From Polyangiales bacterium (GTDB taxonomy: Bacteria > Myxococcota_A > Polyangia > Polyangiales > Houyiibacteriaceae), in NCBI GenBank assembly GCA_965227405.1, contig OZ245758.1, positions 2,387,153 through 2,451,152 on the forward strand: a stretch of 64,000 nt of DNA, written 5' to 3'. Positions 42,074 to 49,164 of this stretch are shown here, piece by piece. A model generated the notes under the pieces. That model saw only the letters and a list, made by a program, of their open reading frames with translations, was not told the DNA's origin and did no database searches. Numbering within the stretch: the first letter of the stretch is position 1; every line of letters starts with the position of its first letter. Position numbers and translations under genes: made by a program.

Positions 42074-42643
42074 TTAGCGCTCGAGCGTTAGCGAGAGCGA
42101 CCGCATCCGCGTTCGACACGCGTCCCGCCACGTATCCAACTCCGGTGTCTGCATGTGTTCGACACACACACCAAACGCGGCCGACGCGCGCTGACGGAGA
42201 TCAAACACCGGCGCACGCACCGCATTTGCGGCCTCGGGGGGTAGCGCGCCAAGGTTCGCGTCTTCGAGTTGGTTCGCAGTGCGCAGCAGAATGTGCCCGT
42301 GAATCGCCGCACCCAATCCGAGCTCGCTCTGCGGCCCGCCACGCAGCACGCGTCGTGCTTCATTGGCGTCCGCCAGCATCTGCGCGCGTCGTTCGATCCA
42401 CGGTTCGTGCGTTTCACGAACCCACAACACGTTCGTGGCTGGTGGTAGCGGATCGAGTTGGCGTGAGAGATCGAGCAGCGCCCTGAGTCCAATCCCTGCG
42501 GGATGAAAGGGCATCGCCGGCCATCCTTCAACCCGCGGCGTCGGTGTCGTCGGCGCTTCAACCGCGGGTTCGGATCCTCCGCACGCAAACGCGAAAGCGA
42601 TGAGCAGGGCAAGGCGCACGCGTGAAAGGTACTCTCGAGCCAT
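42074..42643 (-). CDS. hypothetical lipoprotein
   Basis: Start moved to MAREYLSRVRLALLIAFAFACGG. The longer ORF would run antisense through yciH. Confidence 0.45.
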   Translation of the reverse strand: MAREYLSRVRLALLIAFAFACGGSEPAVEAPTTPTPRVEGWPAMPFHPAGIGLRALLDLSRQLDPLPPATNVLWVRETHEPWIERRAQMLADANEARRVLRGGPQSELGLGAAIHGHILLRTANQLEDANLGALPPEAANAVRAPVFDLRQRASAAFGVCVEHMQTPELDTWRDACRTRMRSLSLTLER

Positions 42644-43013
42644 GGGTAAGAAAAAGCCGCCTGCCCCCAAAGAGGAAGTGCGCAACAACCCGTTTGCTGC
42701 GTTGGCACCGGCGAGCGCGCCACTACCCAAACAAGAGAAGAAGCCCGAGCCTGTTGCGTCCAGTGCTTCGAACCCGTTTGCGGGCAAGCTTGTGTTGCGT
42801 CGAGAGAAGAAGGGCCGTGGGGGCAAGACGGTAACGCGTCTTAGTGGCGTTGCGCCAAACGCCTTGGACGACACGGCCAAGCAAATGAAGAAGGGCTTGG
42901 GTTGTGGGTCGCTCGTGGAAGGCGACGACATCGTGTTGTTGGGTTCGTTGGTTGATCGCGCAGCGGACTGGCTTGAGAAGCAGGGTGCGAAGAAGGTGGT
43001 TCGCGGAAACTAA
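42642..43013 (+). CDS. yciH: SUI1/eIF1-family translation initiation factor-like protein
   Basis: Start at MGKKKPPAPKEE. KKGRGGKTVTRLSGV...LKKGLGCGSLVEGDDIVLLGS matches the YciH/SUI1 pattern. Confidence 0.8.
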   Translation: MGKKKPPAPKEEVRNNPFAALAPASAPLPKQEKKPEPVASSASNPFAGKLVLRREKKGRGGKTVTRLSGVAPNALDDTAKQMKKGLGCGSLVEGDDIVLLGSLVDRAADWLEKQGAKKVVRGN

Positions 43014-43070
43014 ACTCGGAAAAAGATCGATACGCGGGGTTGACCCGTCGAAGACGCCGACGCATTGTAG

Positions 43071-43439
<369 letters not shown>

Positions 43440-43479
43440 GCAAGAATCTCCTTTCAACAAAAGGGAAAACAAAGATTAC

Positions 43480-43851
43480 GGTTGTTGCCGCGCCCTTACG
43501 CGAGAAGCGTACACACGGTAAAAAACAAACCTCGCAAGTTTGCACTGTCGGTTCGAATCCGGCTCGGTCCACCGCGTCCTAGGACGCTGCAAACAGCTCG
43601 CGCTACAAAGCGAGAGCACTTCCCAAAGGTCGAACGAGCGCGAAGCGCTCGACGATCGGAGGGGGAACAAGCTCGGCGCTGAAAAGCGAGAGCACCTCCA
43701 AAGTTCGAACGAGCGCGCAAGCGCTCGACGATCGGAGGGGGGGACCCAGAGGGCTCTGCCCGATGGGGGGGGAGGACTTCAAGAAAGTCCTCCCAGAAAT
43801 CTGGGCCGAATAAACACATTCGTCGCTTTTACGACTTGTGCGGCAACAACC
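43480..43851 (+). ncRNA. helix-closed structured element (module 1) with a tRNA T-arm and two tandem ~75-nt hairpin-rich units
   Basis: GGTTGTTGCCGC (43480..43491) is the exact complement of GCGGCAACAACC (43840..43851). Inside are TACACAC (43510), the T-arm GTCGG-TTCGAAT-CCGGC (43547..43563) followed by TCGGTCC-ACC, a tandem repeat at 43595..43669 / 43670..43743, and a 9-bp hairpin GGAGGACTT/AAGTCCTCC. Confidence 0.35.
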
Positions 43852-43859
43852 TTATTTAC

Positions 43860-44004
43860 GCGCCTGTAGTTCAATTGGATAGAACGCCGTCGTCAAGACA
43901 GCTTCAGCAACTTACGCGGCTCCACTCGCGACTACTCTGCAAGCCTACACACGCATCGGGCTCATAACCCGGAGGTTACAGGTTCGAATCCTGTCGGGCG
44001 CTCC
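43860..44004 (+). tRNA. tRNA-Met(CAT)-like gene interrupted by a 69-nt insert in the 5' strand of the anticodon stem (module 2)
   Basis: GCGCCTG-TA-GTTC-AATTGGATA-GAAC-G-CC [insert 43889..43957] GGG-CTCATAA-CCCGG-AGGTT-ACAGG-TTCGAAT-CCTGT-CGGGCGC-T. The acceptor pairs over 7 bp (one T-G). The D, anticodon and T arms are canonical once the insert is removed. Confidence 0.45.
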
Positions 44005-44008
44005 TCTC

Positions 44009-44163
44009 GCACATCTCAAAACTATCGCCGGCCGCTACGCGGCCACAGCACACGACCTGCTGCCATCCTCTCGCCTCGGTAATGAGTACATTGCCTCGGT
44101 TCGCGGACGCACCATCTCGTGCACTCTGACGGCGTATCGACGGGCGCTAGTTTTGAGATGTGC
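44009..44163. mobile_element. MITE-like element, copy 2 (155 bp), inserted between tRNA-like modules 2 and 3
   Basis: GCACATCTCAAAACTATCGCC (44009..44029) pairs with 44143..44163 as a 21-bp TIR with one mismatch. Its interior is collinear with copy 1 at 22491..22653. Confidence 0.6.
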
Positions 44164-44179
44164 TTCGAATCGTGACCAC

Positions 44180-44290
44180 TTTTGAAGCGTACATACTTGG
44201 AGGTTCGAATCCTTCACTCCCCACCAGAGCTCTAAGCTCAATCACATTGGGGAGTTGGGCAAATGGCAAAGCCAACGCGTCGTAAAACGC
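44180..44290 (+). ncRNA. circularly permuted tRNA-like module (module 3)
   Basis: Order is T-arm GGAGG-TTCGAAT-CCTTC (44199..44215), ACTCCCC-ACCA (44216..44226), a 22-nt linker with hairpin GAGCT-CTA-AGCTC, then GGGGAGT (44249..44255, exact complement of ACTCCCC), TG, and D-arm GGCA-AATGGCA-AGCC. The closing helix is GCGT (44187..44190) with ACGC (44275..44278), extendable to TTTT/AAAA. Confidence 0.4.
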
Positions 44291-44336
44291 GTCTATCAAC
44301 GACCGCTTCACCAACTTACACGATTCAACAATTCAT

Positions 44337-44459
44337 CCCTCGCGATCACTGATCGGCTTACACACTGGCTAAACTGGGATAGGCAACAGACTCTTAATCT
44401 GTGATTTGTTGGTTCGAATCCAACGTGAACATCACCAGCCGATCGAACTTGCGTGAGGG
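44337..44459 (+). ncRNA. 123-nt YrlA-like tRNA mimic (module 4, anticodon-loop CTCTTAA)
   Basis: The leader pairs with the trailer: CCCTCGCG (44337..44344) with TGCGTGAGGG (44450..44459), and ATCGGC (44352..44357) with GCCGAT (44438..44443). The core has TACACAC, a D-arm-like segment with GG, ACAGA-CTCTTAA-TCTGT, and GTTGG-TTCGAAT-CCAAC. Confidence 0.5.
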
Positions 44460-44469
44460 TGCCAAATTT

Positions 44470-44576
44470 CGCGCGCGTCCTAACAACTGGGACTTACACA
44501 CTGGCCTTGAAAGCCAACGGATTGAAACTCCGTCCCCTGCAAAGGGAACACAACGTCCCGGAAACTCACGCGCGCT
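44470..44576 (+). ncRNA. 107-nt Y-RNA-like module (module 4.5) with D- and anticodon-arm look-alikes but no T-arm
   Basis: GCGCGCG (44471..44477) pairs with CGCGCGC (44569..44575), and GGGAC (44489..44493) with GTCCC (44555..44559). The core has TACACAC, GGC-CTTGAAA-GCC, ACGGA-TTGAAAC-TCCGT, and a CCCT-GCAA-AGGG hairpin. Confidence 0.4.
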
Positions 44577-44588
44577 ATTCAAATCACC

Positions 44589-44711
44589 CCCTCGCGATCA
44601 CCTGCGCGGCTTACACACTCGCCTAACGGTAAGGCAACAGACTTCAACTCTGTCGATGTTGGTTCGATTCCAACGTGAAACCAAACACAGCCGTTCGAAC
44701 TTGCGTGAGGG
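44589..44711 (+). ncRNA. 123-nt YrlA-like tRNA mimic (module 5, anticodon-loop CTTCAAC)
   Basis: Paralog of module 4. CCCTCGCG (44589..44596) pairs with TGCGTGAGGG (44702..44711). The core has TACACAC, TC, a perfect D-arm GCCT-AACGGTA-AGGC, A, ACAGA-CTTCAAC-TCTGT, CGAT, and GTTGG-TTCGATT-CCAAC. Confidence 0.5.
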
Positions 44712-44760
44712 AAGCTTCTGGTCGTCTTTCAGATGACCTTCGTCTCGGTCCCCGACTTCA

Positions 44761-44824
44761 TCGACGTACACACAATCGGATCCTGGGGGCGAAAGCCCTC
44801 TGCATCATTGCGTAGAACCGTCGA
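44761..44824 (+). ncRNA. small helix-closed module (module 6) with TACACAC and a GAAA-tetraloop hairpin
   Basis: TCGACG (44761..44766) pairs with CGTCGA (44819..44824). TACACAC is at 44767. Contains the hairpin GGGGC-GAAA-GCCCT. Confidence 0.3.
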
Positions 44825-44886
44825 CGTAACTTGACCGAGCGTTGATCTGCAGCGTTCGTCTAATGCCAGGATGCCGGCCCTGTTAG

Positions 44887-46524
<1,638 letters not shown>

Positions 46525-46646
46525 TCGCAACAACAAACAAGAAACAAGGAATGCGAGTGCGATCTCAGATGGGGTCGCTTCGCGTTCCCGGTTTCGAACG
46601 CGTGCGCGGCAATCGCACGTTTCCTTGGAGTTCATCCGTGACTGAC

Positions 46647-47534
46647 ATGAAGACTGCTTACCGACTTGCGGCTGCGGCCGTTCGTCGTCGTTACGCCGAG
46701 CAGCGTCCGCACACGCTGGCTCGACTCAACGCGCTGACCAAGAGTGACGTCGCGGTTTACCGTGGCGTGCACGACCACGTGCAGGAAGTGCTCAACATCT
46801 TGGGTGTTCCGCACAGCATGGATCCCAAAAAGCTGGAGCACCGCATCGCGTTCGTGAACTGCACGAGCAAGATTGCGCACGTCGACAAGCTCGAGCGCTT
46901 TGCGCGCGAGGGTGGTCTCGTCGTGAGTTCCGACTGGGCGCTGCGCACGATCCAAAAGACGTTTCCGGGCATGATCCGCAAGGGCGGTTCACGCGCGACG
47001 GGTGACGAGGTTGTGGGTGTCGAAGCAACGGCCGACAGCCTTTGGTCCGAAGTTGTCGTGCTCGGTACCAATCCTCAGTGGTGGCTGGAGGGTGGCAGCG
47101 ATCCGATCGTGATCGATTCACCGGACAAGGTCGTCATCGAGGCTGCAAGCCACGAGATGTTGCAGCGTTACGCCGCACCGGTTGTCGCTGCATCGTTCCC
47201 GTGGGGAGCGGGTCACGTATTCCACGTGGTCAGCCACTTCTGGTTGAAGCGCACCCGTACCGCTGCAGGTCGTCACGCAGGACCCGCAGCCGATTTCATG
47301 CGGGCCGGTCTGAAGTTGAGCGAAGAGGGCATCGACGCCGTATTCGCGAAGACCAAGATCGACCCGAAGGCCGTGAGCTTCGCTTCGCTTCAGAGCGCGG
47401 CGACCGCCACCGAGCTCGTCGCGCGTTTGTGCGCAGACGGACTCGGCGCTCAACCCGGCCTGCCGTTTGTCCCCGCCTCCTCCGAGGCGGGGACCAACCC
47501 TTTCCTCGCCGCTCTCAAGCGCGCGTTTTCGTAA
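46647..47534 (+). CDS. hypothetical protein (unknown function), operonic with rsr
   Basis: Start ATG 46647 (MKTAYRLAAAAV), or GTG 46638 after GGAG. 295 aa with coding-like composition. No motif I can name. Confidence 0.6.
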   Translation: MKTAYRLAAAAVRRRYAEQRPHTLARLNALTKSDVAVYRGVHDHVQEVLNILGVPHSMDPKKLEHRIAFVNCTSKIAHVDKLERFAREGGLVVSSDWALRTIQKTFPGMIRKGGSRATGDEVVGVEATADSLWSEVVVLGTNPQWWLEGGSDPIVIDSPDKVVIEAASHEMLQRYAAPVVAASFPWGAGHVFHVVSHFWLKRTRTAAGRHAGPAADFMRAGLKLSEEGIDAVFAKTKIDPKAVSFASLQSAATATELVARLCADGLGAQPGLPFVPASSEAGTNPFLAALKRAFS

Positions 47535-47538
47535 TCCA

Positions 47539-48396
47539 ATGACGCATGTTCTGGACCTGATCGATCGGCTCGCCCGCGCAGAGGACGAGCTTCGTTCGCG
47601 GCGTTTTCTTTCGCCGTGCGTTCCGGGCGTGCGTCTGCGGGTGCGCATCGACGGCTTGGTGCACGCGTTTGCGCCGAACCCACCGCGCTACGCAGGTTGG
47701 GGGTTGTTCCAGCCGATCGACTCGAAGCGCGCACAGCTGGTGAAGCGTCCAGACGACGCGCTGGTGAATCGCTACCTCGAGCACCTTCCGTCCGAACGCT
47801 TCTACGCGGTCAAGCAGGCCAAGGGGAAGGCGTGGTGGGCGATGCCGCTGTCCGCAGAAGCTTTCCGTGCGCGTCACGGTCGCGATGGTCCGATCGTGGT
47901 GCACCTGTGCAAGAACGTCGCGTCGTTCGAGACGATCGTCGTGCGTTGGGACGGTGCGAGCTTCTGGTTCGACCAGGTCGATCGTTTTGCCGATCCGGTT
48001 CTGCCGGAGAAGCTGCGCGTTGGTTTCACCGAAGGCAAGGAGCTCGAAGAGCTTCAGCTTGCGGGCATCACTCCGGAGCTCGTCGACGCGTACGTGTGGG
48101 CGTCGCTTTGGGATGTCGAGCAGCGCAAGAAGAGCCTTGAGGGTTCGCTCGCGCACGCGCTCAAGATCGGTGGCGGCAAGCTCGTCACCTTTCGCGACAC
48201 CGACACGCACCTCGTGGTGGAGTGGCGGGATCGCTTGGGTCGTCGACACAGTTCGGCGATTCAGAAGAACGCACTGCAGGTGCAAAGCGCCGGTGCGGTG
48301 TGTCTCCAGGGTCGCGATGCGGACTTCGATCTCACGTCGCTCGTCGGTGTGATGGACGAAGCCCCGCAATACCTCGTCGACATGCTCGACGATTAG
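47539..48396 (+). CDS. hypothetical protein (unknown function), operonic with rsr
   Basis: Start ATG 47539 (MTHVLDLIDRLARAEDEL), 4 nt after the previous stop. 285 aa, no motif recognised. Confidence 0.6.
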   Translation: MTHVLDLIDRLARAEDELRSRRFLSPCVPGVRLRVRIDGLVHAFAPNPPRYAGWGLFQPIDSKRAQLVKRPDDALVNRYLEHLPSERFYAVKQAKGKAWWAMPLSAEAFRARHGRDGPIVVHLCKNVASFETIVVRWDGASFWFDQVDRFADPVLPEKLRVGFTEGKELEELQLAGITPELVDAYVWASLWDVEQRKKSLEGSLAHALKIGGGKLVTFRDTDTHLVVEWRDRLGRRHSSAIQKNALQVQSAGAVCLQGRDADFDLTSLVGVMDEAPQYLVDMLDD

Positions 48397-48531
48397 CTCA
48401 CCCAAATCCGTACTCCTGCGTGTTTGTTGGGAATGCGCAGAGTGCGGGGGTTTGGGCTCGTTTTGGAGGGAGTTCGGGTCAGATCTGACCCTGTCCCCAA
48501 AATCCTCCCCCGATTGTGCGGAGAGAGTCTG

Positions 48532-49164
48532 ATGTCGTTTTTGTTTCACGAAAAGTTGTCTCGCTCGGGTGCTGTTATGGCGAAGCTTCGTGCTGCGCAT
48601 GTGACGGTGTGTGGGGCGGGTGCGCTTGGAAGCCACGTCGTCGAAGGGCTTGCTCGCTCGGGCGTGGGTGGGCTTCGCGTGATTGATCGCGACAAGGTCG
48701 AAGAGCGCAATCTCTCGACTCAGCCGTGGACGCGTGCAGACATCGGGCAGCCGAAGGCGCGCCTGCTAGCGCACTCTGTCTTTCGCGCGGTTGGCGTGCA
48801 GGTCGACGCACGTGCGAAGGAACTCAACAGCGACAACGCACGCGCGTTGGTTCGCGGTAGCTCCGTGGTTGTCGACGCGTTCGACAACAGCGTGGGTCGT
48901 GCAGCGGTCAAGGCTGCAGCCGCCAAGCTCGGGCTGCCGTGTGTGCACGCCGGGATGGCAGGTGAGTACTCCGAGGTCGTGTGGGATCCGCACTACGTGG
49001 TTCCGAGTGCGACCAACGACGACGTTTGCGACTACCCGCTAGCGCGCAACTTGGCGATCTTGACGTCCGCGATCGCGGCGGAAACGGTGATCCGTTTCCT
49101 CGCTACCGGAGTGATGGAGAACCGCGCCCTGACGTTCGGCGATCTAAAGCTGACGACCCACTGA
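48532..49164 (+). CDS. small ThiF/MoeB/E1-like adenylyltransferase
   Basis: Start ATG 48532 (MSFLFHEKLSRSG). Rossmann Gly loop VTVCGAGALGSHVVEGLARSGVG, then RVIDRDKVEERNLSTQ (the DxDxV..sNL.RQ pattern of E1-like enzymes). Only 210 aa, so it has no rhodanese or extra C-terminal domain. Confidence 0.75.
   Translation: MSFLFHEKLSRSGAVMAKLRAAHVTVCGAGALGSHVVEGLARSGVGGLRVIDRDKVEERNLSTQPWTRADIGQPKARLLAHSVFRAVGVQVDARAKELNSDNARALVRGSSVVVDAFDNSVGRAAVKAAAAKLGLPCVHAGMAGEYSEVVWDPHYVVPSATNDDVCDYPLARNLAILTSAIAAETVIRFLATGVMENRALTFGDLKLTTH

Follow-up and report, generated by a model that had tools for sequence, protein, structure and literature searches.

Background

Why Ro60 particles carry mimics of transfer RNA (tRNA), and how Y RNAs arose from tRNAs, are questions touched by a locus in the genome of a Polyangiales bacterium (contig OZ245758.1, positions 2,387,153 to 2,451,152). 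The window, as the term is used here, is this whole stretch of 64,000 nucleotides (nt), and unlabelled coordinates are positions within it. On its forward strand, at 43860-44004, lies an element named U2, which resembles a tRNA interrupted in the anticodon stem by 69 nt. The question is whether U2 is a tRNA gene disrupted by a removable insert, as a first-pass annotation of the DNA had implied, or an RNA in which the additional segment belongs to the structure. The former is not supported by the findings described below, namely that the insert is nearly invariant, that the same stem closes six adjacent units and that the anticodon varies. U2 is probably a non-coding RNA of the Y-RNA/YrlA kind, consisting of a tRNA mimic and a retained protein-docking arm, and not a spliced tRNA gene.

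YrlA RNAs (Rfam RF02553) are tRNA-mimicking Y RNAs that are encoded beside bacterial or phage Ro60/Rsr (PMC4201824; bioRxiv 10.1101/312249). U2 lies 1.06 kb upstream of the gene for a protein with a Ro60-like fold, and by this fold match it shares with YrlA and the Y RNAs a position near Ro60. The protein belongs to a large, overlooked family, encoded in at least 565 genome stretches, whose members carry only the public names 'vWA domain-containing' or 'hypothetical' protein. For comparison, 80 loci, mostly cyanobacterial, were sampled as stretches of about 5 kb on each side of this gene, and they are labelled L001 and so forth where a label is required.

Structure of the split element

U2 has the normal topology of a tRNA. 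Its acceptor stem of 7 base pairs (bp) is open (GCGCCTG at 43860-66 with CGGGCGC at 43995-44001) and is followed by T-CC; the D arm lies at 43869-85, the anticodon arm is composed of CC at 43887-88 and GGG-CTCATAA-CCC-GG at 43958-72, and the T arm occupies 43978-94. The sequence agrees with that first annotated. When 43889-43957 is deleted, ARAGORN calls a 76-nt tRNA-Met(CAT) with stems of 7, 4, 5 and 5 bp, which bears out the earlier expectation of a complete tRNA. On the native sequence of 43860-44004 the same program finds no tRNA, the contiguous cloverleaf of a canonical tRNA being absent, and the Rfam tRNA model covers only the 3' part (43942-43994; 28.9 bits against a gathering score of 29). 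The covariance model R1 gives U2 a score of 142.6 bits. The T-arm motif GGTTCGAWTCC has five copies in the window, all within 43550-44671 (0.17 expected), and TACACAC has nine (2.8 expected), six of them within 43510-44773, a clustering that is not due to chance.

The surroundings of U2 provide the key to its insert. U2 is one of seven units, U1 to U7, in an RNA array (43478-44839) situated in a 1.6-kb non-coding stretch (43440-45066) between an open reading frame (ORF) of 66 amino acids (aa) and one of 485 aa. Reading and folding of every piece revealed the same two-stranded stem in each unit. The 5' strand of this stem comprises a basal helix, a loop of 6-10 nt and a proximal helix ending in GC(N), after which UACAYAC follows; the 3' strand comprises the proximal helix, a loop with ACU(U/C)(A/G) and the basal helix. 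In U1 and U3-U7 the two ends of the RNA pair with each other to make the stem, whereas the ends of U2 lie in its acceptor stem. The strand order in U2 is reversed, with the 3'-type strand first, then a loop of 8 nt, the 5'-type strand and UACACAC.

The 69 nt (43889..43957, forward strand) can accordingly be read as a closed Y-like arm, the pairs of which were checked and the motifs of which recur in U1 and U3-U7. A linker (43889-900) leads into the proximal helix, formed by GCTT(CA)GC at 43901-08 with GCAAGC at 43939-44. An internal loop (AACTTA at 43909-14 opposite ACTACTCT at 43931-38) separates this from the basal helix (CGCG at 43915-18 and 43927-30), which is capped by an apical loop of 8 nt (43919-26), and TACACAC stands at 43946-52. 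The two strands are mutually complementary (GCTT/AAGC, GC/GC and CGCG/CGCG); since they pair with each other, the stem is a closed arm whose UACACAC end is joined to the tRNA body. In the orthologue of U2 in L001, which comes first after the stop codon of the small ORF, there is no 5' strand upstream, so that the arm must close on itself and this reading is the sole one available.

That the insert is not random and carries a module common to the neighbouring tRNA-like cores had been recognised from the first, and the repeat finder confirms it: 43897-43925 is 79% identical to 44301-44329 (family D5), and families D5 and D6 tie the insert to U1 and U3. The comparator originally chosen, 44305-44365, does share these motifs; it is composed, however, of strands from two different units, first the 3' strand of U3 and then the 5' strand of U4, which are not complementary and do not pair with each other.

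The GGG/CCC pairs beside the CUCAUAA loop of U2 recall those adjoining the anticodon loop of Escherichia coli tRNA-fMet, and mimicry of an initiator tRNA was therefore considered. The idea was discarded, as the pairs are not kept in the CAT elements of L004 and L003 and are also found in GTT elements.

Conservation of the split form

Comparison of orthologous loci, which had been proposed as a check in the first-pass annotation, yielded six further split elements in five other Myxococcota genomes (L001, L004, L007 with two, L009 and L020). Both halves have been kept, in register, in all of them. Six elements from five genomes (the window, L001, L004, L007 with two, and L020) were aligned as A2; the seventh, in L009, has a long variable region and was left out. 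In A2, 99.4% of the cells are paired and 12 of the 29 pairs change on both sides, a result reached by none of 500 shuffles, and when the 3' partners are slid by 1-3 columns, pairing amounts to 34-43%. In the acceptor stem, whose two strands lie on either side of the insert, 5 of the 7 pairs covary, and so do 3 of the 5 pairs of the T stem. The anticodon stem is interrupted on its 5' side, after position 28, in agreement with the initial placement, and the pair 27-43, which also spans the insert, changes from C-G to G-C in L020. On the evidence of this alignment, the split cloverleaf is under selection. The arm itself varies little: its helices are almost invariant across the seven split elements, and its motifs and stem positions are nearly constant.

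Once the arm is removed in silico, ARAGORN reads the elements of the window, of L004 and one of the two in L007 (L007b) as Met(CAT), that of L001 as Gly(TCC), and the other L007 element (L007a) and those of L009 and L020 as Asn(GTT). As read from these calls, the anticodon is not fixed among orthologues, yet it is drawn from a small recurring set.

The acceptor end is more constant. All seven split elements have the 7-bp acceptor stem followed by N73-CC, and A76 is encoded in two of them (L020 and L007). The statement of the first-pass annotation that no CCA is encoded thus holds for U2, which reads T-CC only, and does not extend to the group, where N73-CC is universal and a full CCA occurs in 2/7. 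Of the 18 Myxococcota units of split or permuted type, 16 have N73-CC after the 3' strand of the acceptor, those with closed loops included, against 19 of 187 units from other phyla. This pattern suggests a lineage-specific opening of the loop at a tRNA-type 3' end. The sites for N73-CC(A) in the window are 43564-43574, 43995-44004 and 44216-44226.

Among the sampled loci, true split elements occur in Myxococcota only. The model R1 matches any tRNA by deleting the insert and gave 250 hits; long cyanobacterial hits were rejected as split elements, as they span junctions of two permuted units and their acceptor halves are not fully complementary.

One fold in several circular orders

The stem of U3, like that of many units at other loci, connects the two ends of the RNA, and the acceptor stem is closed by a loop, which is the order known from YrlA. 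The permuted order reads stem 5' strand, UACAYAC, anticodon hairpin, T arm, acceptor 3' strand, loop, acceptor 5' strand, D arm, CC and stem 3' strand, and is an exact rotation of the split form. Permuted units from L003, L004, L060 and L030, when rotated in silico, are called as tRNAs by ARAGORN (a result obtained with no shuffled control), the rotated L003 units being Met(CAT) and Gly(TCC). These two classes, permuted in L003, occur in the un-permuted form in related genomes (the window, L001, L004 and L007). Where two permuted units meet in a cyanobacterial array, the succession of motifs imitates that of the split form.

In a third arrangement, exemplified by U4, the shared stem prolongs the acceptor stem. 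Alignment A4, of 24 such acceptor-extended units from at least five phyla, is 95.4% paired, and 25 of its 35 pairs covary, including 6 of 9 in the basal helix and 6 of 8 in the proximal helix of the stem, with the proviso that the seed units were picked by a complementarity filter on 12 of the scored positions. With the 3' partners slid by 1-3 columns, 30-49% pair. The locus offers a natural series, in which one tRNA-like body and one stem are combined in the order of a tRNA, in a permuted one or by way of the acceptor end, and which makes the hypothesis of a 'dimeric tRNA / circular permutation' origin directly testable.

A further arrangement was observed in Nostoc as a 'tRNA within a tRNA' (L073 3070-3290; L085 2725-2930). 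The outer tRNA-like RNA has a 7-bp acceptor stem, a D arm and a T arm, and a complete unit of stem and inner tRNA-like core sits between its D arm and anticodon arm; the outer part is called tRNA-Leu(TAA) by ARAGORN once about 131 nt are deleted.

The Ro60-like protein and its operon

The 485-aa protein encoded at 45067..46524 (forward strand), presumed partner of the Y-like stems, is predicted to consist of a helical-repeat ring and a vWA domain. Its AlphaFold (AF2) model has a mean predicted local distance difference test score (pLDDT) of 71.9, and the top 13 Foldseek matches in the PDB are all Ro60/Rsr/TROVE structures that align over nearly the full length (E 4.6e-11 to 3.8e-08; template modelling score 0.51-0.59). 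A phmmer search with the single sequence found a phage Ro60 (PDB 9l5y, E 1.2e-4), and phrog_850, an 'RNA-binding protein' family, matches with E 3.7e-8. Pfam returns only vWA, below threshold, with no match to the TROVE model, and a profile built from a 17-sequence alignment and compared with PDB sequences lost the weak TROVE match of the single sequence. The link to Ro60 is consequently based on the fold search, the single-sequence match and phrog_850, and the product of 45067-46524 is treated here as a divergent Ro60 paralogue on the strength of the structural model. The protein is at least 60% identical across phyla.

In most of the 80 loci sampled, the gene is preceded by units with TACAYAC and a T arm. 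Counts of unit types are heuristic, because the motif-anchored search is too strict and misses U2, U5 and the L007 units; it replaced a generic duplex-energy search for stem partners, which was too noisy in GC-rich DNA.

Upstream of the array lies the small ORF (43239..43439, forward strand), of which the 66-aa product ends in ...RPEAVYG; a homologous ORF of about 66-69 aa precedes the Ro60-like gene in 61 of 81 loci. The protein has no Pfam or NCBIfam match and is a putative ubiquitin-like (Ubl) partner of the E1-like gene, as its size, the Gly at its C-terminus and the linkage to ThiF suggest. Downstream on the same strand, the Ro60-like gene is followed by a conserved protein of family F294 (46551..47534; found in 18 loci, with no family matches) and one of family F277 (47539..48396); in all sampled loci with both genes, the F277 gene immediately precedes the ThiF-like one. 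The F277 model (AF2, pLDDT 80) has no significant fold match in the PDB, with weak OB-fold-like similarities only. The last gene (48424..49164, forward strand) encodes a ThiF/MoeB-type E1-like adenylyltransferase (Pfam ThiF, E 4.5e-31) that scores below every NCBIfam equivalog cut-off.

The gene order, small Gly-terminated ORF, RNA array, Ro60-like gene, (F294), F277 and ThiF, is kept in other Myxococcota, and with accessory genes it is found in cyanobacteria, Acidobacteriota, Armatimonadota, Actinomycetota and in metagenome-assembled genomes (MAGs) of Clostridia and Rhodothermales. The pairing of a Ro60-like family with putative ubiquitin-like/E1 genes was unexpected. Cyanobacteria often add paralogues of L7/L12 (29 loci) and EF-Ts (9), the RNA 2'-phosphotransferase Tpt1/KptA (9), an Rnl-type RNA ligase with an OB domain (7), a GNAT-domain protein (16) and an AAA ATPase (7); coordinates of accessory genes are L060 4426-4812, L023 7590-8195, L072 4876-5433, L038 7485-8477 and L022 1846-2805. 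These genes point to translation and RNA repair, and none of them is present in the window or the sampled myxobacterial loci. Screening of the operon proteins with PADLOC returned only the generic E1 domain of the ThiF-like protein, and none reaches an NCBIfam cut-off; the operon is not a catalogued defence system.

Two observations concern the wider surroundings. A gene for a SUI1/YciH-family translation-initiation-factor-like protein lies immediately upstream of the small ORF (42600-43013), and SUI1 is also nearby in L001. Ordinary tRNA arrays stand directly upstream of the Ro60-like locus in Oscillatoria (L054 43-2376, 18 genes), a Rhodothermales MAG (L081 1611-4741, 22 genes) and Phormidium (L015 78-2092, 14 genes). 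In Anabaena, long tRNA arrays respond to translational stress, and their neighbourhoods are rich in RNA-processing genes (PMC8421152).

Other units of the array

All of the following elements are on the forward strand. U1 (43478..43853) is a permuted Y-like unit with a T arm and an acceptor 3' strand reading TCGGTCC-A-CC; its acceptor loop contains a large insertion, of about 230 nt, and a clear D arm is lacking. The strands of its basal helix (43477-91/43840-54) are 93% complementary (I2), and stem, T arm and acceptor pairing all appear in the minimum free energy (MFE) fold. Within the acceptor loop, 43600-43741 holds two tandem copies of about 76 nt (D1, D9, D11) with GC-rich hairpins, which looks like a repeat insertion into an RNA gene.

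Between U2 and U3 lies a long imperfect hairpin (44009..44163) with 55-nt arms that are 78% complementary (I1) and a perfect base of 16 bp. Its MFE is -75.6 kcal/mol, and it has no counterpart in the shortest orthologous array, that of L001. U3 (44168..44325) is a permuted unit running from the stem 5' strand through TACATAC, T arm, an acceptor hairpin with ACTCCCC-A-CCA in its loop, D arm and an anticodon-like hairpin to the stem 3' strand; all these elements are recovered by the MFE fold, and its orthologue is L001 5620-5760.

U4 (44337..44459) contains a tRNA-like core with the anticodon loop CTCTTAA, called as tRNA by ARAGORN and Rfam, whose acceptor stem is prolonged by the Y-like stem. 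U6 (44589..44711), with the anticodon loop CTTCAAC, is a second unit of this type according to the same calls, alignment A4 and the MFE fold, and direct repeats D7, D8, D10 and D13 connect the two. In U5 (44471..44575) the stem, both helices of which appear in the MFE fold, surrounds three short hairpins; it lacks the T-arm consensus and has TACACAC at 44495. U7 (44744..44839) has the stem and a small apical domain that is not tRNA-like, as seen in the MFE fold, and comparable minimal hairpins lie just upstream of the gene in L073 (4850-4930) and L060 (4850-4925). There are three units in L001 and seven in the window, and units are gained and lost fast.

Beyond the array, a GC-rich hairpin (44997..45026; 13-nt arms, 92% complementary, I5) with A and T runs on both sides precedes the start of the Ro60-like gene by 40 nt. 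It may tentatively be regarded as the terminator of the RNA array; a promoter and terminator scan of 43000-45200 gave no sigma-70 match and did not list this hairpin. A further cloverleaf-shaped element, devoid of the shared stem, was noticed at 44849-44923, with the acceptor GCAGCGT/ACGCTGC, three hairpins and then G-CCA. Its T-like loop is TTGGATT, and the reverse complement of 44897-44909 is identical to the T-arm/acceptor segment of U4 and matches that of U6 at 92%. ARAGORN and Rfam give no call for it.

Gene finders label stem-embedded cores such as 44359-44433 and 44611-44682 in the window and L073 3127-3200 as tRNA-Lys(CTT), tRNA-SeC(TCA), tRNA-Pyl(CTA) and so on. In many genomes such labels are likely annotation artefacts, and elements of this kind are either called odd tRNAs (SeC, Pyl, unusual anticodons) or overlooked entirely.

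Interpretation and alternatives

What U2 does may be pictured as follows, the steps beyond the existence and conservation of the fold being drawn from the precedent of Ro60/Y RNA and from gene linkage. The RNA array would be transcribed as one, RNase P and RNase Z would set the acceptor end of U2, and the CCA enzyme would complete its CCA. The RNA would fold as a tRNA-like L from which the 69-nt arm, presumably not spliced out, projects between positions 28 and 29. By analogy with Ro60/Y RNA, this arm, with its two helices, ACUU(A/G) internal loop and UACACAC, would dock on the Ro60-like ring. The tRNA-like body could then act as an effector or decoy shown to tRNA-recognising factors, which would be RNase P, RNase Z and the CCA enzyme at the acceptor end and possibly also operon proteins or translation factors. 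Relative to classical YrlA, the RNA would be permuted back to tRNA order, with the acceptor open and the docking stem closed. An arm of this size, attached to the anticodon stem, would presumably clash with the ribosome, and the cellular role is, by the same analogy, probably in RNA quality control or the response to translation stress.

Several observations count against a docking RNA of this kind. The pairing of the arm in split elements is deduced from complementarity and from other unit types (alignment A4), not from covariation. Energy-based folding of U2 alone favours another pairing for the 5' half (MFE -43.3 kcal/mol, z-score -1.08; comparative fold -29.8 kcal/mol). By inspection, GNCGAAN0-1G, the motif of the Ro60-binding helix (PMC4201824), is not in the 5' strands, which read ...CGCG-(C/A)YYRAC...-GCN-UACAYAC, and the Rfam YrlA model has no match in the window at E up to 10, U3 included. 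The 7-nt anticodon loops, the recurring anticodons and the conserved CC hint at a job more tRNA-like than that of a passive scaffold. Finally, RNA ligase and Tpt1 are frequent in cyanobacterial loci, which leaves room for cut-and-join processing.

A bolder version of the Y-RNA reading takes the operon for an unrecognised ribonucleoprotein system of the Ro60 type in which true tRNA look-alikes are active substrates or baits; we consider it rather unlikely as it stands. Such look-alikes would have anticodon loops of a few identities, CCA-type ends and a stem attached at any of three positions, interconverted by circular permutation. They might be decoys that report attack on tRNA (by anticodon nucleases or in translation stress) to the ubiquitin-like/E1 module, or acceptors, the 3' end of which is loaded with the E1-activated small protein. 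If this were true, the un-permuted form would be a direct evolutionary link from tRNAs to Y RNAs.

A chargeable carrier would likewise retain the arm. After maturation by RNase P/Z and addition of CCA, it would be aminoacylated, or given the E1-activated small protein, and would hand this on away from the ribosome via the Ro60-like protein. The conserved 7-bp acceptor stem with N73-CC, completed to CCA in L020 and L007, the strict linkage of Gly-terminated ORF, RNA array, Ro60-like gene and ThiF-type enzyme, and the gain of CCA by Mycobacterium smegmatis YrlA in vivo (PMC4201824) would all suit such a function. The core operon, however, has no conserved aminoacyl-tRNA synthetase or transferase, the commonest unit type buries its acceptor end in the stem and cannot be charged, and outside Myxococcota the CC is not conserved (19/187 units, as above). 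On balance we think a carrier unlikely.

The shared stem might instead serve in processing, as a site at which RNase III or another nuclease cuts a polycistronic precursor, with no docking involved and the closed version in U2 a leftover. Stems do flank the units as leader-trailer helices would, and the units are packed head to tail. Against this, the sequences of the internal loop and UACACAC are kept across phyla while the helices covary, as is typical of a specific recognition site; the stem is tightly linked to a protein with a Ro60 fold; minimal stems without cargo are kept beside the gene; and the closed arm, useless as a leader-trailer stem, is kept in seven elements. This explanation appears improbable.

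That U2 is a genuine tRNA (Met, Ile2 or initiator-like), its 69 nt being a novel type of intron that is cut out before ligation of the halves into a 76-nt translating tRNA, is very improbable. It would account for the textbook tRNA that results on removal of the insert and for the canonical acceptor stem, N73-CC and anticodon loop, and RNA ligase and Tpt1, enzymes of the tRNA-splicing type, are often encoded in cyanobacterial loci. Against it, the insert is conserved in sequence, the stem of which it forms part is no insert in the six neighbouring units, and related elements differ in anticodon. Group I introns in bacterial tRNAs are inserted in the anticodon loop and have a catalytic core of more than about 200 nt; the present segment is 69 nt long, lies in the stem and matches no Rfam intron family at E up to 10, so that the initial exclusion of a group I intron stands. 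No 3-4-3 bulge-helix-bulge could be drawn at the junctions 43888/89 and 43957/58 by inspection, a dedicated search not having been run, and no tRNA splicing endonuclease is known from bacteria. Neither the window nor any of the myxobacterial stretches sampled contains the ligase or Tpt1 gene.

Hardly any credence can be given to U2 as a decaying by-product of tandem-array rearrangement, a pseudogene with no function of its own, for although its motif order is that of any junction between two permuted units and units turn over fast, all seven helices are kept by compensatory changes in the six elements of A2 and ordinary permuted-unit junctions have no complementary acceptor halves.

Relation to known systems

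No account of the protein family or of these RNAs was found in the literature searched, with a prior mention in the RNA-repair survey of Burroughs & Aravind (2016) possible, and the split form is a topological variant undescribed in that literature. The closest known RNA is YrlA, in which the ends form a stem that is followed by a T arm, a closed acceptor stem-loop and a D arm, with no anticodon loop or free CCA, and which has been likened to circularly permuted tRNAs; in M. smegmatis it is cleaved by RNase P (PMC4201824). U2 likewise stands beside the gene for a Ro60-fold protein, and it is modular, with a stem and a tRNA-like domain that has a T arm, a D arm and an acceptor stem. YrlA often occurs in several copies, as do the units of the array, and the 7-bp acceptor stem with CC(A) of U2 recalls the M. 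smegmatis RNA. The differences are topological in the first place: U2 has an open acceptor end and a closed stem, whereas in YrlA the acceptor loop is closed and the stem ends are open, and besides the stem U2 possesses a complete anticodon arm, the loop of which has 7 nt. Its stem has ACUU(A/G), which in the shared stem is located on the 3' strand, and UACACAC in place of GNCGAAN0-1G. The partner protein is too divergent for the Pfam TROVE model, and the operon encodes a small Gly-ended protein and an E1-like enzyme, whereas YrlA loci have RtcB/RtcA. Two permuted units of L060 score 36.5 and 34.3 bits with the Rfam YrlA model (gathering score 69). The better match has E 7e-7 in a search of 181 nt and 4.8e-6 over 1.26 kb, and covers the T arm, closed acceptor stem and D arm. 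The RNAs of the array are probably related to YrlA, yet they lack several of the features by which YrlA RNAs are recognised.

In Yrn1 and Yrn2 of Deinococcus radiodurans and in metazoan Y RNAs, a conserved bulged stem docks on Ro60 and a second module recruits a further factor (PNPase in the case of Yrn1). U2 resembles these RNAs in joining a bulged docking stem, as we interpret the arm, to a second module. They keep the sequence of the Ro60-binding helix, however, and have at most a T-arm-like hairpin, never a complete cloverleaf.

Permuted tRNA genes are known from Cyanidioschyzon merolae, a few other algae and archaea (PMC3978253). There as here, one tRNA fold is encoded in differing circular orders, and in the present case both orders are found for the same class. 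The transcripts of those genes are matured by a bulge-helix-bulge endonuclease and a ligase into translating tRNAs, whereas the joining stem of the present RNAs is conserved and probably stays in place, and their hosts are bacterial.

Two-piece transfer-messenger RNA (tmRNA), encoded by permuted ssrA in alpha-proteobacteria and some cyanobacteria, is another bacterial case of a permuted tRNA-like domain and of a tRNA mimic fused to a different RNA module. It is charged with alanine, works with the ribosome and SmpB and has a reading frame for a tag, nothing of which kind is found at this locus; the only matches obtained, of 12-13 bits, are meaningless.

Lastly, tRNA introns, whether the group I introns in bacterial anticodon loops or the bulge-helix-bulge introns of archaea, which sometimes lie in stems, share with U2 an extra segment that interrupts the cloverleaf. 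The segment in U2 has neither a group I core nor an evident bulge-helix-bulge, and is distinguished from them as a structured arm that occurs also in RNAs that are not interrupted.

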